This document shows positions 12,728 through 38,744 of a stretch of DNA of 64,000 nt, in pieces. The notes beneath the pieces were generated by a model. The model had not been told where the DNA came from, did no database searches, and was given only the letters and a program-made list of their open reading frames with translations. A program made the position numbers and the translations under genes. How positions within the stretch are numbered: the stretch's first letter is position 1; the number at the start of each line of letters is the position of its first letter. Location: positions 24,400 through 88,399 of IMG/VR virus record IMGVR_UViG_3300001567_000138, one strand, 5' to 3'. This DNA comes from a virus.

Positions 12728-12792
12728 ATTGTAATCCCTGTTCCCAAAACAGGCAAGTGACAAATGTCATATAGGAATATTACAGATGTCAC
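12728..12792 (-). promoter_or_regulatory. Promoter TTGCCT-17-TACAAT with tandem GTGAC-N4-GTCAC-type boxes
   Basis: Boxes at 12757-12770 and 12779-12792; the first abuts -35. Confidence 0.75.
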
Positions 12793-13436
12793 ATTGCCTC
12801 CTGCCGCTTGCCAAGCAAGCCAAGTTCGCCCACCCGGTTCCAGTCGATGTTCACCGGCTGGTTGTAGAGCGGCCTTTCGATCACGTCCTGCGATTGCAGG
12901 TACTCTAGCACCCGCTGGAGCCTGCGCCGCTTCTCGCCCGACACCGTATCCTGCGGGCGCATCTGGCCGTGATGCTTGGCGGCTTCGCGGAGGTAGACCT
13001 TCGCCTCGTCCTCAACCGTCATGTCGATCTTGGTAGCATCGAGGCCGTACTTGCGGGAGAGTTCCTTCGCCAGGTCAGCCGCCATCGCATCGCCATCCTC
13101 GTACAGGGGCAGAACGACCACCATCAGGGCCTCTACCTGCCGCTCGTTCATCCCCGCTATCCTTTCTGCCATGTAGACCGCGGGGTAATCCCGCATCAAG
13201 GCGGCGGAGGCTTCTTCTTTGATTGCCTTCGCCCTGTGATAGCGCAGGTTCGTCTCGCGCACCCGCCACCAGTCCCACAAGGCGACAACGGCAAGCGCGA
13301 AGAAGATGCACGTCCAGACCACGCTCGAAGTGGACAGCCACACGCTTTCTTCGCCCCACCACGCGATCATAGACCCGCCCAGGAGGGCGTAGACCGTGAT
13401 CGTGATAAGTTTGGGGTTCTGGTCGTCGTCAAACAT
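12789..13436 (-). CDS. Membrane-anchored hypothetical protein
   Basis: Two N-terminal TM helices, 215 aa. Confidence 0.7.
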   Translation of the reverse strand: MFDDDQNPKLITITVYALLGGSMIAWWGEESVWLSTSSVVWTCIFFALAVVALWDWWRVRETNLRYHRAKAIKEEASAALMRDYPAVYMAERIAGMNERQVEALMVVVLPLYEDGDAMAADLAKELSRKYGLDATKIDMTVEDEAKVYLREAAKHHGQMRPQDTVSGEKRRRLQRVLEYLQSQDVIERPLYNQPVNIDWNRVGELGLLGKRQEAM

Positions 13437-13526
13437 GGCTAGACCCTTCTAGGATGATACAAAAACTGCATGATTCCCGGATGATTGCAAGACTTCTTGC
13501 ATAGGGGTGCAGTGGGGGAGGGGGGG

Positions 13527-14326
13527 CTACTTGTCGGGCAGGACTACGCCCACGATAGCGGCGGCAAGAGCGACGCCGATCTGCGCCCCCGTCTGGATCG
13601 CCCTACCGTAGGCCCGCACCACTTCGCGGGCCTGTTCAGGTAGGTTCTCGCAGGTGGCGAGGATTTGTTCGCCCGGTGCTTCTTTCTTCTTTTTGTTATC
13701 CACCGATGTCCAGTCCTTTCTTGTTGTCGAGCTTGAGGGCCAGGAGGTTGATAGCGATAACGCCAATCCCGATGAGGGCAAGCCCGCCCGCTGTGGCGAA
13801 GAACGTTCCAATCGCGCCGGGGATGTGGCAGAGGATTGCACCCACGAAAAAGCAGAAGGCGAAGATAGTGATAACTTTTTTCATCGCTCATCATCTTTCT
13901 CGCGAATGTGGGTTACGATAACGAGCGTACCGCAGTCACGGCAAACGAAACCGTTACGAACCTCGTCCATCGTACCCCCGCAGGGGCAGATACGTTTACC
14001 CTTACCGGCGTTCTGTTTCTTTCCCACCTTCTTCACTTTCGCTTTTGCAGCCATAGTTGACCACCTTACTTTCGGGGAGTGTTCCCGCCTTCGGCATCCT
14101 TGCGGATACGGTAAGACGGGTTGCTTGCGGACGACAGGCAGGCCAGCACCAGGGGGGCGATGGGGGACATCCACGGGACGCTCCCAAAGATTGCGAGAAC
14201 GAACACGATCACGAACGTTGACCACAACAGTTCTGTGACAAATCCCCACACAGATATGCTTCTCGCCTCTGCTATAACGCGCATCATTTCTTTTTCGTCG
14301 CTCAGGTCAATCTCTGGTCTATTCAT
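13527..14326 (-). CDS. Cluster of four small ORFs (13527-13703, 13696-13884, Zn-ribbon 13881-14054, 14066-14326)
   Basis: Overlapping start/stop codons; hydrophobic or CxC/CxxC content. Confidence 0.55.
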
Positions 14327-15038
14327 CGTCTACGCTTTCTTCCTGCGATATCCAGGAATAGAACTGGCTTTTCGGGATGGGGTTCGTCATCCAACTGTTA
14401 TCGGCTTCTGGCAGTTGCAGGCATTCCCGCACCGTCATCGGGCGCATGGGAACACGCATCGGCCTTCCGCTCTTGCTTGTCCACTCCATGCAGTTCGCCT
14501 GCATGACAGCCAGGGCCACGTCAAGGGTCGTAATCACGTCCTGGCCCACGTACTCCAAGACCTTCAACCGCTTCTCATTGCTCTCCTTCCACATCACGGG
14601 GGCCAAGTCCCCGTGCATCCCCTCGGTCTTGCCGGGTAAGCCCATCCCCTTTGCTGCGGTATCCAAACTGAGCGGAAAACCTTTCAGGCAGAAGAGATGG
14701 TACATCATGTCCCAACTATCGAGAGCGAGGGCGGCACAGCGTTCGACTTCCCCGCTCTCGATAGCGAGGTTCTCGAAGTCGAATGTGCCGTTCCACGTCA
14801 GGATCGTGGCCCCATCATTGCGCACGCCTTCCAGGTACTCCAGGACGGCGATGTTATCAGCCTTCGCCATCGCAGCACCGGAAGCGAAGTCAACCTCGTT
14901 GTAGAACAGCATCGGCTCAGGACGGCCAAACGTCTGCACAGCGGCGCAGGAGATACCCAGGGGGGTGTACTTGCGCCAGTCCTCACCCTGGGGGAACTCT
15001 TTCCAGCTTTCGATATCGAAGGCGGCGTAGTATTTCAT
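14319..15038 (-). CDS. RNase H-fold DEDD 3'-5' exonuclease
   Basis: FDIES, TWNGTFD, SLD, EYVGQDV. Confidence 0.85.
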   Translation of the reverse strand: MKYYAAFDIESWKEFPQGEDWRKYTPLGISCAAVQTFGRPEPMLFYNEVDFASGAAMAKADNIAVLEYLEGVRNDGATILTWNGTFDFENLAIESGEVERCAALALDSWDMMYHLFCLKGFPLSLDTAAKGMGLPGKTEGMHGDLAPVMWKESNEKRLKVLEYVGQDVITTLDVALAVMQANCMEWTSKSGRPMRVPMRPMTVRECLQLPEADNSWMTNPIPKSQFYSWISQEESVDDE

Positions 15039-15490
15039 TCTGCCGCCTTCTTGCCGCGGTTCTCCCAGGAGATCATGGCGCTGGCCTGCCCGTTACCGAC
15101 GGTCACGGAGTACCCGCTGATTGGACTTCCGTAGAGGTCGCCAGCCTGTTGAGTCAGGCTTCCGAGGAAGTCGGACAGGGTACTCATCGACCCTTCCAGG
15201 GCGAACAGAGCGGTTTTGGCGCGCTTCCTTGCCAACTCGCGCCCCTTCGCCTTGTTGAAGATGTCGGAGAAAGAGCAAACCGCGATCCCAAATCCCACCA
15301 GTTGACCGCGGCGGGCTTCGCAGATAGATAGACCACCGCGCCCATAGAAGGACTGTTCGGGGTCGTTGCGGATAACGGATGCCGGTTGCAATTGATCGTC
15401 ATTGGGCTTGCCCCTGGTGGGCCATCCCGACCAGAGAGCGGTCTTTACGCTGATACGGCGATACTCGTAGACGTACTTGATCTCGTCCAT
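15035..15490 (-). CDS. Hypothetical phage protein
   Basis: AVCS.SD.FNKAKGRELA motif. Confidence 0.75.
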   Translation of the reverse strand: MDEIKYVYEYRRISVKTALWSGWPTRGKPNDDQLQPASVIRNDPEQSFYGRGGLSICEARRGQLVGFGIAVCSFSDIFNKAKGRELARKRAKTALFALEGSMSTLSDFLGSLTQQAGDLYGSPISGYSVTVGNGQASAMISWENRGKKAAE

Positions 15491-15496
15491 CGCTGA

Positions 15497-16144
15497 CTAG
15501 CCTTTCTTTTCCAGGCGCACGATCTTCTGCGGCTTCTGCGTTTCGGGGTTGTTCTTGACGTAAGCGTGCCATCCCGCCATGCCGTACTTCTTGCCGCCTT
15601 CCAGTTGGGCGATCTTGATGCCGGTCGTTTCCAGGACTTCTTCCCACACGGTCACGCCGAACTTCTTCCACATGCCGCCGGTGATCTTGTAGAACTTCTT
15701 GCTGTTCTTCTCTTCCACCAGGAGTTCGGCGCACTCGAAGGACGAGTCCTCGCCTTCCAGCAGGCCAGCTTCCCGCGGTGCAGCGGGTGCAGGTGCGGAA
15801 GCGGTCGGGGCCTGTCCAGTGGGCAGGGCGTCTCCAAAGGGAGCGGGGGCGGACGGGGCGGGAGCGGCCTGCGAACTCACGTTGTCGCCAAAGCGCGTGA
15901 TCCCGCCGCGGCTCATCGCCACGATGCAGGCGTCGATCACGGCGGTAATGTGAGCGGTGACGTGGGCCGGGTTGGGGATACCGCGCACCGTCATCTGGAT
16001 ATCGAAGTTCTGGACTGCGCCTTCGACCTTGATGGGAACGATGTACTTGAAGTTGGAACTCAGGACGGCTTCACTGCCAGCAAGCCCCTCCACCAGTTCC
16101 TCTCCTGCGGGGAAAATCTCTTCTTGCTTTTCGTTTTCGGTCAT
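15497..16144 (-). CDS. Two-domain hypothetical protein, possibly ssDNA-binding
   Basis: AAAGGA RBS; Pro/Ala linker; first gene of the leftward operon next to primase. Confidence 0.7.
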   Translation of the reverse strand: MTENEKQEEIFPAGEELVEGLAGSEAVLSSNFKYIVPIKVEGAVQNFDIQMTVRGIPNPAHVTAHITAVIDACIVAMSRGGITRFGDNVSSQAAPAPSAPAPFGDALPTGQAPTASAPAPAAPREAGLLEGEDSSFECAELLVEEKNSKKFYKITGGMWKKFGVTVWEEVLETTGIKIAQLEGGKKYGMAGWHAYVKNNPETQKPQKIVRLEKKG

Positions 16145-16189
16145 TGCTTATCCTTTCTCTAGTTTGGTTGGAACTTTCTGTATATGCCA

Positions 16190-16282
16190 AGTATAGCACC
16201 GATATTCTGGCGTGTCAAGTGGATTTTCTAATCAATTTCATCCCTATTTCTATTTGCTTTTTTTCCGACTTCGTGCTACAAT
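16190..16282. promoter_or_regulatory. Divergent sigma70-type promoters
   Basis: Minus: TTGACA(16218-16213)-17-TATACT; plus: TTGCTT(16254)-17-TACAAT(16277). Confidence 0.75.
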
Positions 16283-16342
16283 ATTCCTTAGAGAGAGGGC
16301 TTCGCCCCCCAACCAAAACAGAAAGCGGAAAACGAGGTTAGT

Positions 16343-17344
16343 ATGAGAGACGTTCCTTTGCCATCGGAATTTAGTGATCTCGCCGGTAAAGTCCAGTATG
16401 TGCAGCAGAAGAGTAGATTGGAGTATTCTTCTACCTGCCCGAAGTGCGGCGGCTCTGTTCACCCCGACGGGGAACTTCCTAATCGCTTCGTTATGCTGAT
16501 CCGCAGCAACACAACGGGCGGGTCTCTCGCTCTCTGCCGTAAGTGCGGATACAAGTGGTGGCCGGGGCAGACGGATGGGCGCGACCTTGACCCCGCCGTG
16601 ATGCGCTTACTCGAACAGCAAGCCCAGGTGTACCGCCAACAGACCGAAGAGCAAAGGGCGGCTAAGTTAGCCCGCTTCACGACAAGAGAACTGTGGCTTG
16701 AGTTGAACAGGCGCATGGAAGAAGCACAAAGGGCGTGGTGGCGAACACAGGGGATTGATGACGATTGGCAAAACTACTTGAAGTTGGGCTACACCCCCGA
16801 CAAGCCCTACCTTTCAGGGGGCGAGCTACTTCACTCCCCCGCATACACCATCCCCTACTTTCACCAGGGGTGGGACTTTAGAACCATCCAATACCGCCTG
16901 ACCGACCCCGCTAACCCGAAAGACCGCTACCGCTTCGAGGCCGACCTGTCATCGACCTACTACATGGTCACGCCTTCTGAACCCGTGGGCGACGTTGCTA
17001 TCGTCTGCGAGGGGGCAAAGAAGGCGATTGTAGCGAAGATACTAGGCGACTATCCCGCTACCTATCTTGCCATCCCGTCATCAGGCGACTGGCAGAGATG
17101 CGGTATCCTGGAAGCGGTCAAGGGCTGCGGGCGGGTCTACATCCTACTCGACCCCGACACCTGGGTAAAGCCGAAAGAAGCGGGAGCCAACTGGCGTCCC
17201 CATCCTGAACGCTTTGCGGAAGCGGTGGGCAAGAGCGCCCGTACCGTTGAGATTGCAACGAAAGTGGATGACGGATTTCTACATTACGGCCTGGATGCCG
17301 ACGGCTTCCAGGCTGCACTACGATGTGCGAGGAGATTGAATTGA
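16343..17344 (+). CDS. DNA primase-like protein (Zn finger + TOPRIM)
   Basis: CPKCGG...CRKC; IVCEGAKKA; ILLDPD; KVDD. Confidence 0.8.
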   Translation: MRDVPLPSEFSDLAGKVQYVQQKSRLEYSSTCPKCGGSVHPDGELPNRFVMLIRSNTTGGSLALCRKCGYKWWPGQTDGRDLDPAVMRLLEQQAQVYRQQTEEQRAAKLARFTTRELWLELNRRMEEAQRAWWRTQGIDDDWQNYLKLGYTPDKPYLSGGELLHSPAYTIPYFHQGWDFRTIQYRLTDPANPKDRYRFEADLSSTYYMVTPSEPVGDVAIVCEGAKKAIVAKILGDYPATYLAIPSSGDWQRCGILEAVKGCGRVYILLDPDTWVKPKEAGANWRPHPERFAEAVGKSARTVEIATKVDDGFLHYGLDADGFQAALRCARRLN

Positions 17345-18439
17345 GACAAATACGAGACTTGCACCCTACCGGGAAACAGCAGGGGACGGAGTTCCAGAAG
17401 ATCACGGAAGGGAAAGCCCCTAAGTCCCCCTGCGGTTACTGCGGTGTCTGCGGTGTGCTTGTCGAACCCGAACTAAGCGAACACGGATTCTTGTGCGAGG
17501 ATCACTGCGCCCCCATTCAGAACGCAAGCTGCGACGACTGCCCGCAAGAACTCGCCTGCATGGTCAGGGTGCAACTTGGCTTGTGGGTCGTCTGTGAACT
17601 GCCAAGCCGCCGCGATATCGAATACGCCCTGAAGTGCGGCGTAAAGATCGACAACGTAGACCGCCCCCTGATGGCGGACGTACACACGGAGCATGTGCCA
17701 TTATATGAATACCGAAAAGACCATTGTGAAGATTGAACGTTGGGCCTGGTGCGGCGGTTGCGGATACCAGACTACGCAAGTAAAGATACAATTCGGCGCG
17801 TGGGTTTGCTCCTGCGGCGCGCACCTGCAAGCAAACGGGGAGAGGATCGCGGAACACAGGCCCCAGGAAGCGGAAAAGGCGATGGCGGTAACTTGTCCAG
17901 CCTGATAACTTCCTGCGATCAACTGTCCTTCGATGACTACATCGAACTCGATACTCAGTATTCCAATCTCCCCGACATCTCTTGCGGCTATTCTGCAAGT
18001 GGGGAACACTATACTCTAGTCGCCATCCTGAATAGACTAGGGTTCCACCCGGCTGGCCGGGAAGAAGCCATTCGACTTACAGAGAGGTTACTTACTAATG
18101 GATACCACAAATAACCCCCGGCCCGCATGGGCACAAAAAGGCACGATAGTCAACGTCCACGGGCATCACTGGTCAGGAAAGATCATAGACGTTGCCGTGT
18201 CTGACAACGGTCTTGTCCTGCTCTTGATCGACAGCCCGAAAGCCGACTTCTTCGGCCACGCTCCCGAATGGCTGGTCTATGATCCCCAACAGATCGCACC
18301 GGGATCAGAAGATGATCTCTACGTCTGCCTGGGACGATATCTTGACATGAGCAAAAACCGGACGGATAAAATGTGCGGCTGGTACGAAACTGAGGTTGCG
18401 CCGGAAGCGAAGTTCGAGTGGCCGGATGAGAAGGTGTAG
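17323..18439 (+). CDS. Cluster of four small ORFs, two Cys-rich (17323-17736, 17705-17905, ~17882-18114, 18098-18439)
   Basis: Overlapping ORFs with CxxC pairs. Confidence 0.55.
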
Positions 18440-18440
18440 C

Positions 18441-19109
18441 GTGGATAAAATCGAAACCGAGAACTACACGCTGTATTGCGGCGACTGTCTGGACATCCTG
18501 CCGATTAGCGCCGACGCGGTGATTAGTGACGTCCCTTATGGCATGGATTGGGACACAGACAGCACCCGCTACTCAGGGGCGAAAAACCATCCGAGCGCGT
18601 GGACAGGGCGCGAGGATTGGCCGCAAATCGAAGGCGACAAAGAGCCATTTGACCCATCGCCATTCCTTGACTTTCCTGCAGTGATTCTGTGGGGCGCTAA
18701 TCACTACGCCAATAAACTGCCGACTGGCACGACGCTTGTTTGGGTGAAGCGCGCCCCGATTTTATACGGCACGTTCCTTTCAGATGCGGAAATCGGATGG
18801 ATGAAAGGCGGGTACGGCGTCTACTGTTTTGAGAAGCAATTCCCGCCCCCGTCGCGCATCAAGGAAGGAAACGGGAAAGTTTTACACCCGAATCAAAAGC
18901 CGGTCGAGTTGATGACGTGGTGCGTCCAAAAAGCGAAAGTTCCTGCAGGCGGCTTAGTATTTGACCCGTACATGGGGAGCGGAACCACTGCGGTCGCCTG
19001 CGCTCAAATGGGGCTGCGCTTTGTCGGGGCAGAAAAAGTGCCTGAGTATTTCGAGATTGCACGAAAGCGAATCGAGTTGGCCTACATGCAGAAAGTGATG
19101 CCGTTCTAA
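18441..19109 (+). CDS. N4/N6 DNA methyltransferase (beta class)
   Basis: LYCGDCL, SDVPYG (DPPY-like), HPNQKP, FDPYMGSGTT. Confidence 0.92.
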   Translation: MDKIETENYTLYCGDCLDILPISADAVISDVPYGMDWDTDSTRYSGAKNHPSAWTGREDWPQIEGDKEPFDPSPFLDFPAVILWGANHYANKLPTGTTLVWVKRAPILYGTFLSDAEIGWMKGGYGVYCFEKQFPPPSRIKEGNGKVLHPNQKPVELMTWCVQKAKVPAGGLVFDPYMGSGTTAVACAQMGLRFVGAEKVPEYFEIARKRIELAYMQKVMPF

Positions 19110-19283
19110 AATGTGGTATAATACTTTTGCAATAGAGCGGAGACTGACAAGGTGTGGTGGATAAAATAAGGGAAAAATGCGCCTTTTTGTTTGGGCCTCG
19201 ATTTAATTCCCTTATTCCACACACTTGCAAAAGTGTGTCAGTCTCAAGAGAAATCGGGTTCAAACGAAAGGGCGTTTTTGTTT

Positions 19284-19601
19284 ATGACAAAACAAAACTA
19301 TAAGCGAAAAAAGAAGTCATCCTGGACGGGCAAGAAGAAGGTGGTGGTCGAGAAACGTATACCGACCCCACCCCCTGTTGCGTTGCCAGGAACCAAGAAG
19401 ATTCGCCGCCGCGCCCTCAATGTCCTGAAAGCAGAAAAACTAAACAAGAATAGTTGGAGAGTTTGGGGAGGAAAAGCCGACCATATCGTTACCTATGGGA
19501 ACGGTAGTATTACGTGCGACTGTTGGGTAAACAAAGATGGTGGTGTTTGTTCACATATCATAAAGGTGCTATATGAAACTAAAGTGATGCCGAAAGGCTA
19601 A
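19284..19601 (+). CDS. SWIM Zn-finger protein
   Basis: CDC...CSHI; basic N-terminus. Confidence 0.75.
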   Translation: MTKQNYKRKKKSSWTGKKKVVVEKRIPTPPPVALPGTKKIRRRALNVLKAEKLNKNSWRVWGGKADHIVTYGNGSITCDCWVNKDGGVCSHIIKVLYETKVMPKG

Positions 19602-20074
19602 CCCAAAGGAACTGCTCACAATCCGTCCGCCAGATCAACAGCGTCCTAACTGGATGACTGGCTGCATATCAGAACGTAAAGCGTCTAAACTCCGGGTGCG
19701 CTCCGTGCGTGTAAGAAACAGGACAAATGTTCAGCAGTTCCGGCAAACATATGAAACCCTTCCGTCCTGTTATCCCCTGAGTGATGCGGAGACCGGCAGG
19801 CTTTCTGGGTTGTTTTCAACGCAGGAAGCACTATGAGATAACGGGAGGATACTAGTCAAACGAGGGAGACGAGCCACCCGACGACGACAAGTATTTCCCC
19901 TATCCCCGCGGATAGGGGAAAACTGTCTGCACTCAGTCAACTTCGCTCCCTCTGACGGGTCAACAAAGATCAAAGACCTCGGAACCTCCCAAAGCAAGCA
20001 AGTAAACGAGAAAACAGGCTGGCCCAACAGAAAGCCCGCGAGCGAGAGGATAGCAGGAGAAGGCGAGCAGTTGC

Positions 20075-20103
20075 TTGACAAGATCGCGAAGAGGTGCTAG
20101 AAT
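20075..20103 (+). promoter_or_regulatory. Promoter TTGACA-17-TAGAAT
   Basis: Near-consensus hexamers, TGn extension, upstream of ATG 20131. Confidence 0.8.
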
Positions 20104-20130: not shown

Positions 20131-20978
20131 ATGATGACAAAAACATACGTTGTACAGATCGGAAACAGCGACGATAAGTTGGGCCAGAACGAGTGGGCCG
20201 TGTTCTGCGACCAAGCACAACTCCTTATTCAACAGTGGGGCGGAGAAATACATTTCTCTGGTGCATCGTATCCTACTGCGGAGTGGCAGAATGCAGCCTG
20301 GGTTTTCAATATGAGAACAAGTTTTCTGGACGCTCTTGTAGACGGTCTGCGCGGTCTGTGTGCGCAGTTCCGGCAAGACTCGATTGCTCTAACAGAAGGA
20401 ACAACGTCTTTTATTCAGAAGGGAGTATAAGCATGAGGCCGTTTGACGAAAAACGAAAAGATCGGTTCGCTATCGACATCTTCTCCATCGCCGTCGTTGT
20501 CGTTCTCGGCTTCTGGCTGACAATTGATAACAACGATCCCTCCTGGGTCTTGCTTGCCATCGCTTCCGGGTTCGCTTACGCATGTGTTCGTGTTGCATTC
20601 GGGAGATAGTCCATGAAACCCAAAACAAAGTTTATCGACTATCTTGGAAGCAAGGCAAACGAGAGCGGGGATCACTTCGCTGACATCCTGAGCAAGCTGT
20701 CCTACCAGGCTTGCGACAGCGGCCTTCCCGTTGTGGTTGTGGCCCAATCGCCGCACAAGGGGGATGATACCGTCTGGTTTGTGAATGCAAAGACGGGCGC
20801 AGTCCACGAAGAAGCCCGCGCCAACGGTCGCCCCTGGGGGCACGAGATCATTGGCCCGTTTGAGGATGCGAAAGAGGCGCAAACGTGGTTTGCGGAGCTT
20901 ACTTTGCGCATGGAAACCCTGCGGGCGTACCGCGAGAACCGCCCCCCGATGTTACCGCTTGAAGAGGATAAGCCATGA
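20131..20978 (+). CDS. Three small ORFs (20131-20430, 20433-20609, 20613-20978)
   Basis: Each has an RBS; operon-coupled. Confidence 0.65.
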
Positions 20979-21358
20979 GCGAACTAAAGACCTGCCCGTT
21001 CTGCGGAAGCGACAAACTACACGTAGAGATGGCGTCGTCCTACTACGGCAAAAGACTGCACGCGCATTTCGCCGTGTGCGAGAATGACAATTGCGGCGCA
21101 GAAGGGCCGCACGACCTGAGCGAAAGCGGCGCTGTCGAAAAGTGGAACGCTGCGCCCCGTGTACAGTGTGATGCTCTTCTCAAAGAGAAGAACCGCTTGT
21201 TCCTGGCCTTGCGGTCAATTCATGTTCAATGTGTGTTTCTCATTGACCTTGCCAAAAAGAAACGCCGAACCGCCCTGCCGATTATCCACGAGTTTCACGA
21301 GATTGCGGAAGAAGCCATTGCGGGAATTGTGTGGGAAGATGAAGAGGGTAAGCCATGA
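20975..21358 (+). CDS. Lar-like restriction alleviation protein
   Basis: ELKTCPFCGS...CGAEGP...AVEKWN. Confidence 0.75.
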   Translation: MSELKTCPFCGSDKLHVEMASSYYGKRLHAHFAVCENDNCGAEGPHDLSESGAVEKWNAAPRVQCDALLKEKNRLFLALRSIHVQCVFLIDLAKKKRRTALPIIHEFHEIAEEAIAGIVWEDEEGKP

Positions 21359-21627
21359 GAAAACAAGATATAGAACACTTGAAAGAACGTTTTGCAGTCC
21401 TTCTAGCAACGGGCGTAACGGAGGAGCTTTTCGCCGTCGCGGACATCGGCGTTCTCCTTGCCGAGATCGACAGCCTGCGGGCTGACCTGCGTGTGCTTGC
21501 GAAGAAAGACAACTACACCACTTCGAGCGATGGATTTGAGGACATCTGGCTTATGATTGACGGGGAACCTGATCCAGCCGACTTCGCTGCCGAAGCTCTC
21601 AAGCGGAGCGATGGGGAAGTCGAATAA
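21355..21627 (+). CDS. Hypothetical protein
   Basis: 90-aa coupled ORF. Confidence 0.65.
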   Translation: MRKQDIEHLKERFAVLLATGVTEELFAVADIGVLLAEIDSLRADLRVLAKKDNYTTSSDGFEDIWLMIDGEPDPADFAAEALKRSDGEVE

Positions 21628-21699
21628 CCGCCCCGCAAAAAAACGCTATTTTCGCCTTACCCTTTAACAACGTGAAGAATAAGAGAAAAGAGATAAACA

Positions 21700-22206
21700 A
21701 TGGCAGAAAACACCATCGCTCTACAAGCAGTCCTGCGGGAAAAGACCCGCGACATCTGCACCAAGTACGGCTTCGATAACGAAGCCTTCGTGATCGAGTT
21801 GACCGGCGTCCTGACCCGCGCCCTCTTCGCCCCTACGGGAGAGCGACGCCAGTACACAACGGAAGATTTGCTTGCCATGACGGGGGAAGCCATCGCACAC
21901 GGAACGGCAAATGATCTCTCCCTGCGGGAAGAGTGGGAACGCCTGTTCCACACCTCCCCCGATTGGGAAGGAAACAAGGCCAACCGTGCCTTCCTGCTCT
22001 GGCTGAAAGAGCGCCCCGCTATCGAAAGCCTGGGCGTGTTCGCTTCCTGGTGGTGGGCTAACGACTGGCGCGGAAGCAACGGGCAAGCCCCCACCACGGC
22101 GCAGGTGCGCGAGAACTGGCCCCAGGCGTTCCGGGGCGAAAACCGCCCTGTGGTGAAGAAGCAGGCGACCAGCGAGCGGACTTCCCCGCTGCCGGGAGGG
22201 TTCTAG
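21700..22206 (+). CDS. Putative replication initiator/helicase-loader-like protein
   Basis: Immediately upstream of DnaB; WW..DWRG..GQAPT..QV.E.W. Confidence 0.5.
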   Translation: MAENTIALQAVLREKTRDICTKYGFDNEAFVIELTGVLTRALFAPTGERRQYTTEDLLAMTGEAIAHGTANDLSLREEWERLFHTSPDWEGNKANRAFLLWLKERPAIESLGVFASWWWANDWRGSNGQAPTTAQVRENWPQAFRGENRPVVKKQATSERTSPLPGGF

Positions 22207-22210: not shown

Positions 22211-23206
22211 ATGCAGAAAACTGATCCCCGCGATGTCGTGTTCTCCCCGCCCCATGTTGGCAGGCTGACACAAACCTACCTGCAAGACAGGTGCGACCAT
22301 AAAGACGACGTGGGTATCCCCTTCGGCTTATCCACGATTGACGAGATTATGAACCCGATGCTGCCCGGCCAACTCGGTATCTGGCTAGGACGCCCCGGCC
22401 ACGGGAAAACGGCTAACATGATGCGGTGGGCAAGGCATCGAGCGCGCTGGCTCCAGATGAACGGAATGACGAATAAGGTGGTGGTGTACGCCACCTACGA
22501 GCAGACGGTCGAAGAACTCTCCGCCTTCCACGTGGCGGGCGAGATCGGCTTGAGCATTACCGATATGGCGCGTGGTAACATCTCCCCCGAAAACATGGAG
22601 GTCATCAAGGTCAACACCACGCACCGGGGAAGCCTGCCTTTGTGGTTCATCGGTCACAGCATCGAGAGGCGCAAGACCCGCCCCCGCCTGGACGTGGAAA
22701 TCCTTGACCGCGCCTTGAAGTCTATCGAAGAGTGGGAAGCGGAAGGCGAGAGGGGCATCGAGATTGATATGGTGTTCGTGGACTATCTCCAACGGATACC
22801 CTACATCGGCAAGCCGGAGAGCAAGGTTGTGGGGACGGGAGAAATCCTCAACGCCCTGAAAGATATGACCCTCAACTTCGCCTGCCCGTTTATGACGGGC
22901 GTGCAAGCGAAGCGGGAAGTAGACCTGTATACCGTGCCCATCCCGACGATGGCTGACGGCCAGTGGACTAGCGAGATCGAGCAGGCTGGCGACCTCGTAA
23001 TGACCAGTGTGCGCCCTGTCAAGTATTGCAACGAGGGCGATCCGTTCGGCTCCATCAAGGTCAAGGGGCGCAACCAAATGTGGATTGCCGTACTCAAGCA
23101 GAAGATGGGCGATAGCAACGTGGGCAAGTGGGTAGACTTCGACCCCGCCTACAACAGGCTGAACGCGATGGAAGAGACGAGCTACGACCTGAACGAGATG
23201 GAGTGA
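22211..23206 (+). CDS. dnaB: DnaB-like replicative helicase
   Basis: GRPGHGKT, VFVDYLQ, SEIEQAGD, KQK. Confidence 0.92.
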   Translation: MQKTDPRDVVFSPPHVGRLTQTYLQDRCDHKDDVGIPFGLSTIDEIMNPMLPGQLGIWLGRPGHGKTANMMRWARHRARWLQMNGMTNKVVVYATYEQTVEELSAFHVAGEIGLSITDMARGNISPENMEVIKVNTTHRGSLPLWFIGHSIERRKTRPRLDVEILDRALKSIEEWEAEGERGIEIDMVFVDYLQRIPYIGKPESKVVGTGEILNALKDMTLNFACPFMTGVQAKREVDLYTVPIPTMADGQWTSEIEQAGDLVMTSVRPVKYCNEGDPFGSIKVKGRNQMWIAVLKQKMGDSNVGKWVDFDPAYNRLNAMEETSYDLNEME

Positions 23207-23267
23207 CATTTGTCACAATCGAACATGACAGAAATCACTTGCAGATGTCAAAAACTGCTGTTATAAT
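23203..23267 (+). promoter_or_regulatory. Promoter TTGCAG-17-TATAAT with tandem boxes
   Basis: GTGACATTTGTCAC at 23203-23216 and ATGACAGAAATCAC at 23225-23238 abutting -35. Confidence 0.8.
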
Positions 23268-23274
23268 TGAGGTA

Positions 23275-23935: not shown

Positions 23936-23939
23936 CATA

Positions 23940-24010
23940 GCCGACATGGTGTAATGGCAGCACAGCAAGTTCGTATCTTGCTAGTACTGGTTCAAGTCCA
24001 GTTGTCTGCT
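23940..24010 (+). tRNA. tRNA-Thr(CGT)
   Basis: Cloverleaf, anticodon arm GCAAG-TTCGTAT-CTTGC, GGTTCAAGTCC T arm; C3:U70 mismatch; CCA not encoded. Confidence 0.88.
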
Positions 24011-24020
24011 CAGTAAACAT

Positions 24021-24098: not shown

Positions 24099-24099
24099 T

Positions 24100-24340: not shown

Positions 24341-24363
24341 GTTTCCTAGAAAGGAGAACAAAG

Positions 24364-28418: not shown

Positions 28419-29321
28419 TTATTCTCCTTTCGTTTCAAATGCGGATTTGGCGAGTTCGTCCTTGTACCACTCTGGCAGGCCACGGGTCAGCCCACGCTTG
28501 ATCTTGGGCCAGAAGTGTGCCCACAGAGCGGCCTTGATTTCTTCCTCGCACTCGGACTCGACATCCTTCACCACGCCCAGGATGAGCTTACCGATGTCGG
28601 TTGGGTCGTCCGCGAGCAGGCCATCTTCGCGCAGGTGGTTGACCGACTTCTGCCAGCGGGCCGGGCTGGTGTACTTGTCGGTGAGCGTGTCTACAACGTC
28701 AGACGGGGCCGGGTTGTTCTTGCGCCACTCCCCGCCGTGGACTTCCTTGAAGGCTTCGCTAACATACTTCCCGATGCAGGGCTTGGCGTCGCGGGAGAAC
28801 TGGTTGTGGTTCTTGACCACGATCCCCTCGATCTTCGAGCCACCCAGGATGGATGTGCGCTCTAAAAAGCCTTTCAGAACTTCCACGCTCTCGATGTTTC
28901 CGCGGGCAAGCAGGGGAACGCACTCCAGGCCGATGCGTTCAAACTCCGCCTGCTTTTCCCTGTACCCCATGTACGTCTCTGGCCCCACCATAATGTCGAA
29001 GCCGATCAGGTACTTGTTGGGTGCGCGGTCGTAGGCCAGGGTGTTGTGTTTTTGGGAGCGCAGGTATTCGCAGCGGTACACGAATCCTTCTACCAGGTGG
29101 GGAGCGAGTTCGAGGGCGGTTTCGATGGCCTTGCTGAACATGCTCTCGTGTGCGTCAAGGATGATCTGCGCGTTATGGGAGCGGCATTGCAGTTCCCCGT
29201 CAACCAGGCCGAATGAAAACTGGCTTCCGTCCACCTTCTCCTCAACGATCACTTCGCCCTCAAACAGGTTGGGGATAGATGGGTGGCCGATGGCATAAAC
29301 CTTTGGGTAAGAATTAATCAT
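28419..29321 (-). CDS. ATP-dependent RNA ligase (Rnl2-like)
   Basis: YPK, EEKVDGSQ (KxDG), CEY, GFDI, EGIVVK, GKYVSEAF. Confidence 0.88.
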   Translation of the reverse strand: MINSYPKVYAIGHPSIPNLFEGEVIVEEKVDGSQFSFGLVDGELQCRSHNAQIILDAHESMFSKAIETALELAPHLVEGFVYRCEYLRSQKHNTLAYDRAPNKYLIGFDIMVGPETYMGYREKQAEFERIGLECVPLLARGNIESVEVLKGFLERTSILGGSKIEGIVVKNHNQFSRDAKPCIGKYVSEAFKEVHGGEWRKNNPAPSDVVDTLTDKYTSPARWQKSVNHLREDGLLADDPTDIGKLILGVVKDVESECEEEIKAALWAHFWPKIKRGLTRGLPEWYKDELAKSAFETKGE

Positions 29322-29351: not shown

Positions 29352-32300
29352 TTACTTCTTGCCAGTTAGGATGGAGATGTCATCGGGCGACATTCCGCCT
29401 GCCAGCATCGCTGCGAGCATTTCTTTGCTTGCCTTTTCTGCGTGGCCCTCTGGCGACATCTGGTGCTGGAGGAGTATGCCTGCGGCGACATCATCGCGGG
29501 ACGTGTACGAGCGGGGGCTTGCGCCCATCATGCGGGACATTGCGCCAAACAGTCCGGCCATTGCCGCGCTGTCGGGATCGTCCACCCGCTGCCCCGTCTC
29601 GCGCTCCAGGCGCTCAATAAGTTCTGCTGCACTTTCGTTCTTAGTATTCTTATCCATGTGCCTTACTCTCCTTTCTTGAATAGTTTGATCTCGAAGTCTG
29701 CCCACCACCTGCGTTTGCGGTCAAAGAATGTGCGCCCGCTTTCGCAGTAAGGGCAGCCCCCATGACAGCGGCAGGATGTGTCAAAGCGCCGACTCTGCCT
29801 GTACGGTTGTTTCCACGTCTTGTTCTTCTTCCAGGTTGGCTTTCTGAACTTCAATGTGGGCCTCCTCGATGTTGGAGTGTACAGGCCCCGCTATCCAGCA
29901 GGGGTTCGGGTTCTCGGTGGTGGACAGGTCGATTAATTGTACCACTTCGGGAGAAGCTCCTTGAGAAGCGATGAAGGCGGCGCGTACCGCTTCCTCGGTG
30001 TCGCTGTGGTGGTACTGCTTGAAGTTCCCTTGTGGGCGGCGGGGGAGGCCGATGTGGGCGGGGTTGATGGGCTTGATGTCTGGTTTCATCAGCGAACTCC
30101 GGTTGAGTAGGCGCAGAGTGCCCAAATCAAGATGATGGCGATGGTCAGGATACCCATGATAATCATGTGTGTGTGTCCCTATCCCATCGCAAAGATGACC
30201 GCGTGTGATGTTTCGTTCCATTTGGCGAAGTTGCCTTGCCCAAACAGGCCGATTCCGTGTTCAATCATCAGGTCATCGAACAGGTAGATTGCTTTGCGGA
30301 CTGCTTCGCCGTTGCCGATGAACGGGCGCAGAAGGTAGCGCCCTTGCAGGATCGGGCGGTTTGTTCCGTCAGACACGGTGTACTCAAGCACAACAACATC
30401 ATTGTACTGGTCGTATCCGGTCAGGTGAACGTTGATGTGTGGCCCCTCCATGTACTCAATATTCGAGTCGTCGCAGCGGATTTCGTCGCTAAACAGGTGC
30501 GCGGTTTCGTGGTACATCGTTTTCGGTTTCATGCGTTTTCTCCCGTGTGTGCGCAGCAGGCGCAGGCGGAGCGGTTGGCCCCGTTGCAGGCGCACTCAAA
30601 TGTGCTTTGATACTGGTCGCAGACAGCGAGGTACTGCGCCTCTGCCGTTTCTAGTGCCTTGCGGAGTTCGGCTTCCTTCTCGTCGTCCTGTTTGTAGATG
30701 TGTACAGATACGCTGTACACGTAGTTGCCCAGGGCGAACGTGGCGTTCTGCCAGGCGTCATGGGCGTCGTGGATGTGGGCGGGCAGGCTTTCGTACTTTT
30801 CGTGTGCGGCCTTCCTGATCTGTAGCCAGGTGAAGCGTTCCGCGTTCCCGCCTTCCTGCTCGAAGGTCGCCGCCCACCACTCTTTATACAGCCGGTCGCC
30901 CAGGATGGTGTGCAGGCGGGCGAGGGATGCTTGTGCGCGGACTTCGTTGATCTCGTTGCTGTGTTCTTGCTTGCTGCGCTCGTAGTTGTTCGGGGCTTTT
31001 CCCATGATCTCATCTCCTCAAGTGTGCCTAAATTATAGCCGATGTTTCTGTGAGTGTACAGTGACAAATGTCACGGTTCACGGGTGACAAATTTCACTAT
31101 GCGCCTTTGATGTAGGCCAGCAGAGCGTCAAGGGCGGGCGTGGCTTTCGCGTCCCCTTGTGCCTCTTCCAGGGCCAGCCGGAGGGCTGCGGCCTGGATCA
31201 CGGTCAGGCGGCTCCAGGTGGGCTGCCAGCCCAGGCGGGCGGCGATAGCGGGGGCGAGCTTGCGGTCATGCACGCTGGCTCCCTGAAACTTTTCTTTGAG
31301 TTGCGTGAAGTCCTTCATTGTGTTTACTCCTCTCAGTTCTCGATGTCTGCCAGGGCGTCAAGCAGGGTTTTGTAGGTGCGCCCGCTGTGGGCGTAGTGGC
31401 CGAAGGCGGCAAGGCGCACTAGAATAAAGCGTTCTTTGCCGGGTGCGGTGTGGTCGTACTCGTAGACGGCGACCCGTCCCTGCTCTGCGGCCAGGGTCAG
31501 GGTGGCGCAGTCGGACACGTCCACGGTCTCAAAAGTGGGCAGCGTGCGCAGGTTGCCGACGGTCTCCGCGAGGGTGGCGAAGTCCATCAGGTAATTTTCT
31601 CCGCCCCATGTTTCGGGGGTTTCGTAGATGGTTTGTGCAAAGTTGCTCATGGTGTTACTCCTCTCCTAAGAATTGGATGCGCCCGACGAGTACGCCGAGG
31701 TGCATGATAGCGGCGAAAACTTTGATCTTGCCCGCTTCTTTTGCGGCCTTCAAGAGGTCGCGGGTCGCCTGATCGGTTGCCCACCTTGCGCCGTTCACGG
31801 TGAACGTGCCTTCAGGGGGCCAGGGGGTTGCGGGGGCGGTGTCGGTCATGGCGTGGCTGGCCTTGTTCGTGCGATGATAACCGCCGCATCATAAAAGCCC
31901 GCGCCAAACGATGACTTGGCGGTATGGCTTGTTTTGTCTAGCACTTGTTTTGCAATAGACAAAACCATTTGCTTTGACATTTTCTCCCGGCTTTTGGATG
32001 AGAAAAAATCCATCGCCTTGTTAAACCCCTGGGTTTCTTCTGATATGCAGTAGTTTGTGGTCATTGCTTGATCTCCTATGCTTCTATTATCGCACTTCTC
32101 ACGCTTGCGTACAAGTGACAAATGTCACGTGTCATGGGTGACAAACGTCACCCCTTGATGACCTCGTAAAATGCCCATAGTGGTATTCCCACCACAGCGG
32201 CCAGCAGCAGGCCGAAGCCCCACAGGGGGGCGGTGACGATGGCGAGGGCCAGGATCGCGAGTTGGAGCAGGCAGGATTTGCTTTTCATCGCGGTTCGCTC

Positions 32301-32576: not shown

Positions 32577-33332
32577 CTATGCTTCCAGGCGTACAAGGCG
32601 GGCAGATACGCCGGTTCCGCTTTCCTTGAATGACCCCGGCGGGAGTTGTTCGGAATACCCGCTGTGTTCGTCCAGCCAGGCGCGGAAGTCTACCGCCTTT
32701 TTGTCGCTGCGGAAGAAGGGCGGCTCGCTCATCACGGCGACCAGTACGCCGCCCTCGGTTAGCAGGTCGAAGGCGTGCCGAACGTGGTCAACGTCTTGCA
32801 GGTTCTCAAAGGGCGGGTTCATAAACACGCGGTCGAAGATGCCGGGCAGTTCTCCCCAACAATCCATAAAATCTTCTTGGACGGTGCGGAATCCCTTGCT
32901 GCTCAGGGCGGCGGCGCGCTCCGGGTTGATCTCGACACAGGTAATATTCTCTTTGTCGATGAGTTGCGCCAGGCGTTCCGCGATTGCGCCCATACCGGCG
33001 GAGGGTTCCAGGACTTCCCCGACCGGGGAGGCGAGTGCCAACATGCGGTCAATCACGGCGAGGGGCGTCTCAAAAAAGCCGTCCCTGTCAACTTTGAGTG
33101 TGCCGCTCTCTAGCAAGCCTTCCACCTGGGGGCGGGGGTCGCTGGCGAAGATGTGCGCGCCCGCCTTGCGGTTCCACGCGCCGCCCATTGCTTCAAGGGC
33201 TTTGTTTACCTTGGCGTATAAGGCGCGGTCAAGTTGTCCGTTGATCTTTCCCTGTGTGCCGTCTGCGCTCCAGTCCATCGCGCGTAAGGTTGCCAGGGTG
33301 TCTGGGTCAAAGCGTAAGGTTTTTGTAAGCAT
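32577..33332 (-). CDS. SAM-dependent (likely N6-adenine DNA) methyltransferase
   Basis: FFETP, VLEPSAGMG, VEIN, MNPPF. Confidence 0.9.
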   Translation of the reverse strand: MLTKTLRFDPDTLATLRAMDWSADGTQGKINGQLDRALYAKVNKALEAMGGAWNRKAGAHIFASDPRPQVEGLLESGTLKVDRDGFFETPLAVIDRMLALASPVGEVLEPSAGMGAIAERLAQLIDKENITCVEINPERAAALSSKGFRTVQEDFMDCWGELPGIFDRVFMNPPFENLQDVDHVRHAFDLLTEGGVLVAVMSEPPFFRSDKKAVDFRAWLDEHSGYSEQLPPGSFKESGTGVSARLVRLEA

Positions 33333-33867: not shown

Positions 33868-33933
33868 ATAATAACAGCAGTTCTTGCCAGGTTCAAGTGA
33901 CATTTATCACGGTTGCGGTGTGACATTTGTCAC
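33868..33933 (-). promoter_or_regulatory. Promoter TTGAAC-17-TATTAT with tandem boxes
   Basis: Boxes at 33897-33910 and 33920-33933. Confidence 0.78.
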
Positions 33934-34332: not shown

Positions 34333-35484
34333 TTAGCTGCCGATGTGCATCGGCATAAGAACGGCCAGGAATGCCCCGGCCTTGACGGTAAACGGGCAGG
34401 TTTCAATACAGGGGGTGTTAAGGCTTACCTTCTCGCCCGTTGCGCCTGCCTGCTCCAGGGTATCCGCCAGGAAGTTCACGTTTACCCCGAAGTTAAGCGG
34501 TTTTTCATACTTGAAAACGTCGGGGGTAAGCTCCAGGGCCAATTCTACGCGGTTCTCATCTCCGATGGCGAAGGTTAAGCCGGTGCTGGTTGCGCTCACG
34601 CGTAGAAGGGCGGTTTCTTTATTCGACTTCAGAGGCTTGATAGCTTCCATCCAGTCTGCCAGGCTTGCGGTATAGGTTCCGCAAGGGGGAGCGGTGGGGA
34701 TGACTTGTTCAAGGTCGGGGTAATTTTTGAAGTGCGCGCTCATCTCCGGGGCGAGTTCGATGTCACCCGCCCGAATATACAAGGCGGGGCCGGTGGGTGT
34801 ACTGGGTTCCCCGCCGCGGGGGATGTAGTACACGTCCCCGCCGTCGTTCGCGCCCATCAGGAAGGGGGCCGCGGTTGCGGGGATCATGTAATCAACTTCG
34901 GGATAATTGAAGGCGGGGGCGGGGATGTTTACCCGATAAAGCCGGAATCCGTCCGCCGTCTCTACCATCATCTCCCCTTTGCCGCGGTTTACGACGTGGA
35001 CGGCGCAGAGGATGGGCCGCGCCTCATCGGTTGACGCTGCGGGCAGTGTGCGCTTGAGTGCATCTCCGAAGCCAGGGGGGAGCGGGGTGGGCTGTACATC
35101 GGGAAGGCGGGGGAAGGGGGGAAATTCCTCCGCGCTCATGGCGGGAATGCTCAGGGAGATTTTACCCGCTCGTACCGTTGCGCCCTTGTCGCTGTACTCG
35201 ATATCAACCGTGGCCGCGGTGACACTCTTGAGGGCGTCCACAAGGCGGCGGTAGTGGAGCAGGATCGGTTCAGGGTTCGCGGTGTGCCCGATGAAGGAGG
35301 CGGGGGTGCGCAGGTGGTTAAAGGTGTGATTACATACGGTGTGCAAGGTTCCGGCGGCGGGGTCGATGTGAATATACTCGAGGGCGAGCAGGGTTGACTT
35401 GCTGGCGACGTTGTTTTTGTGGGCTTGCAAGGCGGCTAAGAATGCTTTGCGGTTGACGGTCAGGGTGTAAGTGGGGGCGGGCAT
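34333..35484 (-). CDS. dnaN: DNA polymerase III beta sliding-clamp homologue
   Basis: 383 aa; EEFP, AASTDEARPIL, TADGFRL, YPD..QVIP, GVNVNFLAD, VLMPM. Confidence 0.9.
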   Translation of the reverse strand: MPAPTYTLTVNRKAFLAALQAHKNNVASKSTLLALEYIHIDPAAGTLHTVCNHTFNHLRTPASFIGHTANPEPILLHYRRLVDALKSVTAATVDIEYSDKGATVRAGKISLSIPAMSAEEFPPFPRLPDVQPTPLPPGFGDALKRTLPAASTDEARPILCAVHVVNRGKGEMMVETADGFRLYRVNIPAPAFNYPEVDYMIPATAAPFLMGANDGGDVYYIPRGGEPSTPTGPALYIRAGDIELAPEMSAHFKNYPDLEQVIPTAPPCGTYTASLADWMEAIKPLKSNKETALLRVSATSTGLTFAIGDENRVELALELTPDVFKYEKPLNFGVNVNFLADTLEQAGATGEKVSLNTPCIETCPFTVKAGAFLAVLMPMHIGS

Positions 35485-35532: not shown

Positions 35533-35598
35533 ATTATACATGAGTTCAGAAGGGGCGGGGAGTGACAAAAGTCACCCCCCGCCGGTGTATTGTGTCAC
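35533..35598 (-). promoter_or_regulatory. Promoter with TATAAT, poor -35 and tandem boxes
   Basis: Boxes at 35562-35575 and 35585-35598. Confidence 0.72.
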
Positions 35599-35599
35599 T

Positions 35600-37357: not shown

Positions 37358-37478
37358 TGTATTCGCTCCTATCGTGTGTTGTGCTGGATTATTGTAGGGT
37401 AGATTATAGGATACTATCGGATATGCGATAATACCCTATAATCTACCGCTCATCTAATCAAGATGAGCGGTAAACTAT

Positions 37479-37688
37479 TTACCTGCCGTCAAGCGTGCCG
37501 TCATTGATTGCATCATTGATACAAGCTAATTTGTTGGGCGCGCCTACGAGAGCGGTATAAACATCATAGCCAGCAGCATAACACTGCGCGTCGTCGGGCA
37601 TGTTTACAACACTGTAATCAGCATTGCAAGCCGACAAAAGCAAGGCAACCAGGATCAGCACAAAAGCAATTTTTACGTTCGTTTTCAT
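37479..37688 (-). CDS. Small lipoprotein
   Basis: Signal peptide with LSAC lipobox. Confidence 0.75.
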   Translation of the reverse strand: MKTNVKIAFVLILVALLLSACNADYSVVNMPDDAQCYAAGYDVYTALVGAPNKLACINDAINDGTLDGR

Positions 37689-38220
37689 TTTTACCTGCCT
37701 CTCTAAACAGGTATTAGACTTATGATCGTAAGTCTACCACTAGCCAGCATACAAGATGCTGGATACTGGTAGACTTGCAAGCGACAGGATAGCAAAAAGC
37801 GAGTCGCTTGCAAGATAATTAGATGAATCTACTTTATTACTCGCGCTTTTTTCGATAGGTTTTCAATAGTCGTTTACTGCTATCCTCGCCCCAGTTCAGT
37901 CTACCGATCTATTCTCGCATAGTTCTGCGAAGCGGTATTCTATGGCGTGGGCAGCGTCAAGTGTTTTCTGTGCTATCGTTTTTAGCGTTTCTTGGTAAGG
38001 TGCTGAAGTAGCTATATCTTATCAAATAGCGTACTGGTACGCAAGGAAGTTTATCCTAGTTTACCCATTACAAGCGTAATAAAATTTATGACAATTTGAC
38101 CCGATTGTCATAGTCGTTTTATGACATTTTATTACAATCGTCTACGCTTGCAAGCGCATTCTCTTCATATAATATCACGCGTGGCAATGGGCAAGCGGGC
38201 AAAGCGTAAAGGATAGCATA

Positions 38221-38530
38221 GGATACCAGGCAGGCTCCAGGCTCTAGGATACCTGGAGACGATCAGCATACCAGGCAGGCAGGCAGGCTATAGGAAGGCT
38301 ATAGGAAGGCTCCAGGCTCTAGAATAGGTAGATAGCATAGCCTGCTATAGGAAGGCTCCAGGCTATTGCATGATAGCAGGCTCCAGGAAGGCTCTAGGAT
38401 AGGATAGATAGACTATACTCACAGGCAGGCTAGGTTATACTCAGGCTCCAGGCTCTAGCGCGAGCAGGCTCTAGCATAGATGAGATAGCAGAGCCAACCG
38501 CGGCAAGCCAGAGCCAGAGCCAACCGCGAA
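38221..38530. repeat. Degenerate tandem repeat tract (AGGCTCCAGGCT, GCTATAGGAA)
   Basis: Exact AGGCTCCAGGCT at 38232, 38307, 38353, 38443. Confidence 0.85.
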
Positions 38531-38680
38531 CGGGGGTAAAATCCCTACCATCTTCCCCCCGCTCTCTTCCCGCTCTCGCAGCCACCCGCTCTCGCTGGCT
38601 AGCCAGCCACCCTGCAAGCGAACCCGCATTTTCGGCCTGGCGCGCAAGAAAGGTTGCAGAATACTTAGAACGTTTGCACC

Positions 38681-38744
38681 ATGACATTCGGCGTGAAAAC
38701 GGTGACAAAACACACTGTATTGTCATAATGGCCTATGGTATCCT
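38681..38744 (+). promoter_or_regulatory. Promoter TGTATT-17-TATCCT with degenerate boxes
   Basis: GTGACAAAACACAC at 38702-38715 abuts -35. Confidence 0.6.

Follow-up and report, generated by a model that had tools for sequence, protein, structure and literature searches.

Results

Paired palindromes precede six promoters of a siphovirus-like genome

We analysed a 64,000-nucleotide stretch of the virus record IMGVR_UViG_3300001567_000138 (bases 24400-88399 of this 88,399-bp IMG/VR record; hereafter the window, whose coordinates are used unless marked as those of the record), in which pairs of 14-bp palindromes, here called boxes, stand upstream of promoters. Open reading frames (ORFs) were called over the whole record (n = 123) and searched against PHROGs and Pfam. 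Judged by this gene content, the record is a novel siphovirus-like genome, with a terminase, a tape measure protein and a GH25+M23 lysin among its structural and lysis genes, and a DnaB-like helicase, a primase-like protein, a beta-clamp, an RNA ligase and two methyltransferases among its replication and nucleic-acid genes; the majority of the 123 ORFs matched neither PHROGs nor Pfam. The left end carries, in order, a truncated MFS gene, tRNA-Ser(GCT) (record 1018-1108) and a serine recombinase gene, an arrangement that suggests a temperate element, integrated and with a short piece of host flank.

The core sequence GTGA-N6-TCAC occurs ten times in the window against 0.98 expected, a count reached in none of 100 shuffles. 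Eight of the ten are boxes of the promoters reported here and read GTGACA..TGTCAC or similar; the other two (42911 and 52598) are without the inner CA/TG. Over the whole record, nine boxes lie within one mismatch of GTGACANNTGTCAC, compared with a mean of 0.215 and a maximum of 2 in 200 first-order Markov simulations. Pairs of GTGACAWWTGTCAC boxes spaced 22 or 23 bp apart occur six times in the record and not once across 200 Markov simulations.

All six pairs share one layout, consisting of a distal box, 8-9 bp, a proximal box, a six-base -35 slot, 17 bp and a -10 element (Table 1). The -10 starts 23 nt past the proximal box in 6/6 promoters, five of which are on the minus strand. Boxes lie wholly upstream of the -35 and never overlap the -10 or the spacer. 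The -10 elements match the consensus at 5-6 of six positions and the -35 slots match TTGACA at 2-4 of six (3-4 in five of the six promoters). One box of the pair is weak at P1, P2 and P6, scoring 8.3, 4.6 and 4.0, respectively, with a matrix built from host sites (see below) whose simulated maxima average 9.7.

A sequence-only reading of the window had claimed seven tandem-box promoters forming one phage-wide regulon. Six of them stand (six pairs against 0/200 simulations), each with its proximal box abutting the -35 of a 17-bp-spaced promoter, as that reading had it. The idea of a single promoter regulon is supported, and the position of the box end, 23 nt before the -10 in 6/6 phage promoters, agrees with the class II activation geometry that the reading proposed. 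The seventh pair, 38681/38702, was rejected: the 38681 element has 5 mismatches in 12 to the box, its distance to the 38702 element is 21 bp, and the latter scores 2.7 with the host-site matrix. The 38702 site is more likely an ordinary sigma-70-type promoter with GTGACA as its -35. 'Phage-wide' was also too broad, as the six box pairs are all confined to 23 kb of the replication/nucleic-acid arm. No box with up to one mismatch was found in the structural or lysogeny parts of the record, nor in its first 24 kb, where an HTH_3 gene sits.

The same phage has near-consensus promoters without boxes. Three of these combine TTGACA, a 17-bp spacer and a TG-extended -10 (Table 1), and such promoters are candidates for factor-independent (early or constitutive) transcription. 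Because they exist in the same phage, the boxed promoters can be regarded as a separate class with a weaker -35.

Table 1. Promoters and further features of the window
Feature	Position	Strand	Elements	Predicted target or context
P1	12728..12792	minus	distal box 12779-12792 (weak); proximal box 12757-12770; -35 slot TTGCCT 12751-12756; -10 TACAAT 12728-12733	90-aa hydrophobic ORF starting at 12709, then genes to ~9.0 kb (minus)
P2	23203..23267	plus	distal box 23203-23216 (perfect); proximal box 23225-23238 (weak, 3 mismatches); -35 slot TTGCAG 23239-23244; -10 TATAAT 23262-23267	region without long ORFs (23239-24345) with tRNA-Thr 23940-24011 and tRNA-Met 24021-24098
P3	31032..31097	minus	distal box 31084-31097; proximal box 31061-31074; -35 slot TGTACA; -10 TATAAT 31032-31037	158-aa ORF starting at 31005 and co-directional genes to RNA ligase, 28419-29321 (minus)
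P4	32086..32151	minus	distal box 32138-32151; proximal box 32115-32128; -35 slot TTGTAC; -10 GATAAT 32086-32091	72-aa ORF starting at 32064 and three small ORFs to 31097 (minus)
P5	33868..33933	minus	distal box 33920-33933; proximal box 33897-33910; -35 slot TTGAAC; -10 TATTAT 33868-33873	135-aa ORF starting at 33818 and DNA methyltransferase-like gene 32577-33332 (minus)
P6	35533..35598	minus	distal box 35585-35598 (weak); proximal box 35562-35575 (GTGACAAAAGTCAC); -35 slot TCCCCG; -10 TATAAT 35533-35538	beta-clamp-like gene 34333-35484 (minus)
Seventh site	38702..38729	plus	GTGACA-16-TG-CATAAT, 10/12 match	upstream of 139-aa ORF at 38765
+20075	20075-20103	plus	TTGACA, 17 bp, TG-extended -10; box-less	
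-16218	16190-16218	minus	TTGACA, 17 bp, TG-extended -10; box-less	
+39836	39836-39864	plus	TTGACA, 17 bp, TG-extended -10; box-less	
Fourth box-less promoter	39680-39708	plus	near-consensus, sigma-70-type	
954-aa protein gene	1956-4820	minus	intein splicing domain and LAGLIDADG endonuclease	adjoins terminase

The same promoter module precedes chromosomal genes of Chloroflexota

The sequence-only reading had named motif scans of candidate host genomes and of related phages as a check on its proposal. We scanned 185,579 species genomes with a 22-base tandem pattern, GTGANNNNTGTCAC-N8/9-GTGACANNTGTCAC, and recovered 106 bacterial loci where we estimate that about 0.14 would be expected by chance. 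Titles were available for 80 of these loci. One Prevotella metagenome-assembled genome (MAG) accounted for 27, and 42 of the 53 others were labelled Chloroflexota, under the names Caldilineaceae, Anaerolineae/-ales/-aceae, Promineifilum, Ardenticatenia, Candidatus Aquidulcis or plain Chloroflexi/-ota/-ia.

In these chromosomes the boxes keep the same register to a -10 element. A -10 matching at least five of six positions (with A2 and T6) begins exactly 23 nt past the pair at 24 of 153 oriented pair ends, compared with about one at other offsets. Relaxing the match to at least four of six yielded 47 of 153 pair ends, which we treated as host promoters. Their -35 slot agrees with TTGACA at only 1-3 of six positions in 46 of the 47, with the consensus T-A-T-Y, and the two boxes are separated by 9 nt in 27 and by 8 nt in 20.

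To describe the genes concerned, 40 ORFs downstream of host tandem promoters were searched against Pfam, one of an original 41 (L167) having been dropped as Prevotella-type. Regulators made up 25 of the 40: ten HTH_17 proteins (seven with PocR, three truncated by the locus end), six ArsR, six DtxR-type, two Rrf2 and one LacI. The remainder included three multihaem cytochromes, one NiFe-hydrogenase small subunit, one GltD-like oxidoreductase, one enoyl-CoA hydratase and one CitMHS transporter; seven ORFs had no Pfam family, and a few others fell outside the families named.

Five genomes proved rich in boxes, with 18, 9, 34, 27 and 15 exact copies, whereas the reversed control gave 0-1. When 400 Chloroflexota genomes were sampled evenly, only G006 had more than three exact boxes. 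Among 121 genomes of the class of G006, the counts of GTGACAWWTGTCAC were 17, 6, 2 (three genomes), 1 (nineteen) and 0 (ninety-seven), and the reversed control matched in one genome. The box regulon is patchy. Matches assigned to Rhodoferax and Gemmatimonadota contained no boxes on counting.

When a matrix made from the host sites, which had been preselected by the search pattern, was run over the phage record, the nine boxes of the six promoters were its top nine matches, with scores of 15.9-26.5 compared with simulated maxima that averaged 9.7 and reached 19.6 at the highest. By sequence and spacing, the boxed phage promoters match the host promoter class. Since their paired boxes and -10 distance match those of dozens of Chloroflexota chromosomal promoters, the virus most likely plugs replication-type genes into a global regulator of its host.

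The Prevotella loci were considered as members of the same promoter class and rejected, their 22-bp tandem arrays being a different object. This MAG (L104, L106, L109 and 24 further loci) contains dozens of GTGAC(A/G)NNTGTCAC arrays with a 22-bp period and variable 8-bp spacers. The period equals the Chloroflexota box spacing; the arrays look like a dispersed repeat element and not like promoters.

A CRP-family protein is the best candidate for the factor

GTGA-N6-TCAC is the core of CRP sites, and a class II CRP site is centred near -41.5. The sequence-only reading had found no CRP-like gene in the window, and this extends to the whole record, where none of the 123 ORFs had cNMP_binding or HTH_Crp_2 as a reported Pfam match. 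It had left the choice between a host CRP/FNR-like factor and an unseen phage regulator. Our data favour the host side of this alternative: because identical tandem boxes with the 23-nt -10 distance precede ordinary chromosomal genes in many Chloroflexota, the factor would be encoded by the host and not by an unseen phage protein.

We sorted the CRP-family genes of the five box-rich genomes into several groups, one of which, group A, drew attention on four counts. Its members combine cNMP_binding and HTH_Crp_2 domains, and their nearest solved structures are GlxR, M. tuberculosis CRP, Thermus CRP and E. coli CAP. Their recognition helix, GTVREMV(G/A)R, aligns its R-E with the R-E of the GlxR helix SRETVNK; in CAP, R-E are the residues that read GTGA. 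Orthologues of the G010 protein at 65-78% identity are present in all four other box-rich genomes (G006-G009), whereas in five of five large genomes of the class without boxes the best match does not exceed 45%. Among the genomes sampled from the class, those with an orthologue at 54% identity or more were G006 (17 boxes), G468 (2), G504 (1) and G415 (0). Finally, a single GTGACWWWWGTCAC box with up to one mismatch lies 55-120 bp upstream of four of nine group A genes, in four genomes (L218, L222, L248 and L249), where we estimate a chance rate of about 0.007 per gene. For three of these four genes the box precedes a TTGACA-17 promoter of consensus type and is centred near -51.5, -64.5 and -70.5, respectively. 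On domains, helix, orthologue distribution and upstream boxes, the CRP family put forward by the sequence-only reading appears to be the best candidate, and a group A cNMP-binding protein is most likely the factor at the boxes.

Two other suggestions of that reading fared less well. Rex, a repressor, has the consensus TTGTGAA-N4-TTCACAA; most of the strong boxes have GTGAC, with C at position 5 where Rex sites have A, and they lie upstream of the -35, which argues against Rex. For the Arc-like protein of the phage we found no supporting evidence. The phage HTH_3 protein was likewise rejected as the box binder, having no homologue in the five box-rich genomes.

HTH_17-PocR proteins were also considered as box binders and demoted because of a mismatch in distribution, as they were not found in box-rich G007 or in G421 and were found in box-free G444. 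They look like a target of the box regulon. Their promoters (L102, L125, L132, L146, L179 and L182) contain a conserved TGCA-N6/7-TGCA within the 17-bp spacer, possibly a MerR-style site for the PocR protein itself, superimposed on a box-dependent promoter.

The host of the virus

The left-end MFS gene has matches at E<=1e-50 in 74 of 251 genomes of the class of G006 (best 56% identity) against none of 251 Pseudomonadota genomes, and the tRNA-Ser is 81-84% identical to sequences in four of the five box-rich genomes. A synteny check found no tRNA beside the MFS gene at the three best MFS loci. Neither this check nor the MFS and terminase searches revealed a close host genome or prophage relative. 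The host may belong to the group with the box regulon: the motif is shared and the MFS flank fits the class of G006.

Other phages carrying boxes

An IMG/VR scan with an 18-base pattern, TGTCAC-N8/9-GTGACANNTGTCAC, returned 72 loci. Forty-nine belonged to two sets of nearly identical sequences and matched inside a conserved stretch, and about 13 were arrays of GTGACA half-sites beside short tandem repeats. The promoter module was clearly repeated only in phage G002 (L020/L050), with possible further cases at L009, L028, L052 and L055. G002, an unrelated phage (GC 48%), has four boxes within 500 bp; one pair, 23 bp apart, stands before TTTTTT and, after a further 17 bp, TAAGAT, with a gene downstream. 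Its sole protein in common with the studied phage is the lysin, and no regulator is common to the studied phage and G001-G005, among which only lysin, helicase, methylase and glycosyltransferase matches were found. No close relative of the studied phage was found: a megablast search of 50,697 phage records with 8 kb gave no match, and the clamp protein found a single weak locus in IMG/VR.

An AT-rich stretch of G002 (L084, 1560-1950), between two sets of boxes, carries four TGCGTATAGT-like iterons and could serve as an origin or as another set of operators. At eleven other IMG/VR loci (L015, L017, L036, L041, L047, L058, L059, L063, L069, L076 and L077), a central GTGACANNTGTCAC near position 2000 (near 635 in L069) has extra GTGACA/TGTCAC half-sites 8 and 5 bp away, beside penta- or hexanucleotide tandem repeats. 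The half-site array of L047 adjoins a DnaB-like gene. These arrays might be an origin or partition-type site.

Further features of the record

An Rfam search of the tRNA region gave no match. In addition to the LAGLIDADG endonuclease gene next to the terminase (Table 1), the record has another endonuclease gene, of the LAGLIDADG/HTH_7 type, at 20732-21877 (record coordinates). The first 20,000 bases of the record (record 1-20000) hold lysogeny and defence cargo, namely the HTH_3 protein, DUF6577+AbiEii and subtilase+AAA ATPase, together with a 10-kb glycosyltransferase/aminotransferase/sulfotransferase cluster; record bases 142-326 contain 15 N. DNA of the record was present in sequencing runs of one study, labelled as hydrocarbon metagenome.

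Discussion

We propose that the six phage promoters belong to a promoter class of the host and that a dimeric host factor of the CRP type, most likely group A, activates them, the phage having no recognisable copy of its own. We consider this account probable, though well short of assured. Binding, activation and the identities of the factor and of the host we infer from sequence. Two dimers of the host factor would bind the paired palindromes cooperatively and along almost the same helical face, with box centres predicted near -42.5 and -65 for a transcription start 7 nt past the -10. The proximal dimer would make the class II contact and the distal dimer would give class I-type help, so as to recruit RNA polymerase to promoters with a good -10 and a poor -35. 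The clamp, the methylase, the RNA-ligase arm, the tRNA/RNA cluster, four small ORFs and a small membrane operon would in this way be tied to the host factor. Since the virus encodes no such factor, expression of these six units would depend on, and follow, the activity of the host's.

A broader picture is possible but distinctly tentative. In it, Caldilineae/Anaerolineae-type Chloroflexota, and apparently some Armatimonadota, would have a hitherto undescribed global regulon in which obligately paired GTGACAWWTGTCAC boxes replace the -35 and head a cascade of metal/redox regulators, multihaem cytochromes and a hydrogenase. A temperate phage would have copied this promoter type six times, leaving its whole replication arm, which would lack an activator of the phage itself, gated by a cyclic-nucleotide (or other ligand) signal of the host.

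Several observations weigh against the proposed activation by a group A factor in a Chloroflexota host. Genome G421 has six exact boxes yet only a 33% relative of group A, class-sample genomes with 50-57% orthologues have 0-1 exact boxes, and the link between factor and box is an indirect one, confounded by genome relatedness. Boxes were also found in MAGs labelled Armatimonadetes (11), Clostridiales (5) and Abditibacteriaceae (3). As to the host, the five box-rich genomes contain no close MFS orthologue (G006 alone matches at E<=1e-20, with 34% identity), and terminase relatives, present in eight of 401 Chloroflexota genomes (of which G354 is flagged unpublished), show no more than 40% identity in alignments that are partial, the longest giving 30%. 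The -35 slots of the phage surpass those of the host, and the boxed phage promoters may fire without the factor. Moreover, if the host factor is active in a lysogen, an extra brake on the replication genes would be needed, and none was found. To these must be added the absence of any CRP-family gene behind the 40 host tandem promoters.

This last count, set beside the HTH_17(-PocR) genes found behind ten of the same 40 promoters, raises the question of whether a host factor of another family, such as an HTH_17-PocR protein, binds the boxes. The confounded correlation of group A and its failure in G421 point the same way. Such a factor would have to be reconciled with the distribution of HTH_17-PocR, missing from box-rich G007 and from G421 and present in box-free G444, and the second motif in the PocR promoters would suit the protein's own MerR-like binding. 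The GTGA-N6-TCAC core and the -10 register match CRP-family sites, and group A has both the R-E...R helix and a conserved upstream box in four of nine genes. We therefore regard a non-CRP factor as unlikely, though worth keeping in view. A regulator of the phage itself, of unrecognised fold (a small ORF, the 58-aa Arc-like protein or the HTH_3 protein), could in principle mimic the host specificity and control both the phage and the host regulon. Most of the 123 ORFs are without a PHROG or Pfam match and could hide one, and tandem sites 22-23 bp apart recall cooperative phage repressors. However, host sites occur in many genomes with no sign of the studied phage, the module-bearing phage G002 has only the lysin in common with it, no box lies in the 24 kb around the HTH_3 gene at the start of the record, and the Arc-like match falls under the Pfam cut-off (19.7 against 20.4 bits). 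This possibility seems to us very improbable.

The factor could also be the right one and its sign the opposite, the same host protein repressing the phage promoters, for example in a lysogen, until its ligand is lost. With 3-4 of six -35 positions matched in five of six phage promoters, against 1-3 in 46 of 47 host promoters, the phage promoters could work unaided; the record has the look of an integrated prophage, whose lytic genes need silencing; and some group A genes have a box at varying distance above a consensus TTGACA-17 promoter, an arrangement that is not class II and could be negative autoregulation. Against this, neither the -10 nor the spacer is touched by any box, an exact register of 23 nt to the -10 is something an activator requires and a repressor does not, host promoters of the same register are without a -35, and box-less consensus promoters are present in the same phage. 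Repression is thus decidedly unlikely, and activation by the host CRP-type factor is the account that we retain.

The arrangement resembles known systems in part. In class II and class III promoters of the CRP family (E. coli CRP; NtcA of cyanobacteria, GTA-N8-TAC; PrfA boxes of Listeria), a 14-bp palindrome likewise ends some 22-23 nt upstream of a good -10, the -35 being weak or lacking, and in tandem class III arrangements a second site lies two helical turns upstream. The boxes described here differ in that the inner CA..TG is conserved too (GTGACA-WW-TGTCAC) and that the sites are almost always paired at 22-23 bp; dependence on a factor is here a prediction. Lambda CI at OR1/OR2 offers a similar geometry, the centres of its two dimer sites being separated by about 23-24 bp; the proximal site, near -42, activates PRM through contact with sigma region 4. 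Unlike the presumed factor of the present boxes, CI is encoded by the phage and its operators lie beside its own gene, overlapping lytic promoters, whereas here no box is near the phage HTH_3 gene and sites occur on host genes as well. The stoperators of L5 and the conserved inverted repeats of phiC31 are also cases of one short motif repeated between genes of a temperate phage with a serine-type or other integrase. Those motifs bind the phage's own repressor, are phage-specific and have no fixed register to a -10; the boxes have an exact register and are common to the host.

The nearest precedent is that of T4-like marine cyanophages, whose genomes carry 1-16 NtcA sites each and which have been proposed to make use of the nitrogen-stress regulator of their host (Sullivan et al. 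2010, PMC3037559). There too, the phage has no copy of the regulator, sites for a host CRP-family regulator stand ahead of diverse phage genes, and phage expression is proposed to be coupled to the physiological state of the host (PMC3037559). Our case differs in the host phylum and the motif, in having six tandem pairs confined to the replication/nucleic-acid arm, in the temperate look of the element, and in that its host regulon and factor are putative. The box strings had no match in the literature searched, and among the papers listed there we found nothing relevant. To our knowledge, almost nothing is known of transcription control in Anaerolineae and Caldilineae, which are abundant and hard to culture, or in their viruses.

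If our reading is correct, these bacteria would have a testable global regulon with a named candidate factor, and the motif would serve as a sequence-based host marker for uncultured phages, the module being found in at least one other IMG/VR phage. It would also provide, after cyanophage NtcA, a second independent case of a virus wired to a CRP-family sensor of its host, here through tandem sites and in what is likely a temperate element. Should gating by a cyclic nucleotide prove true, a second messenger of the host would decide phage development.

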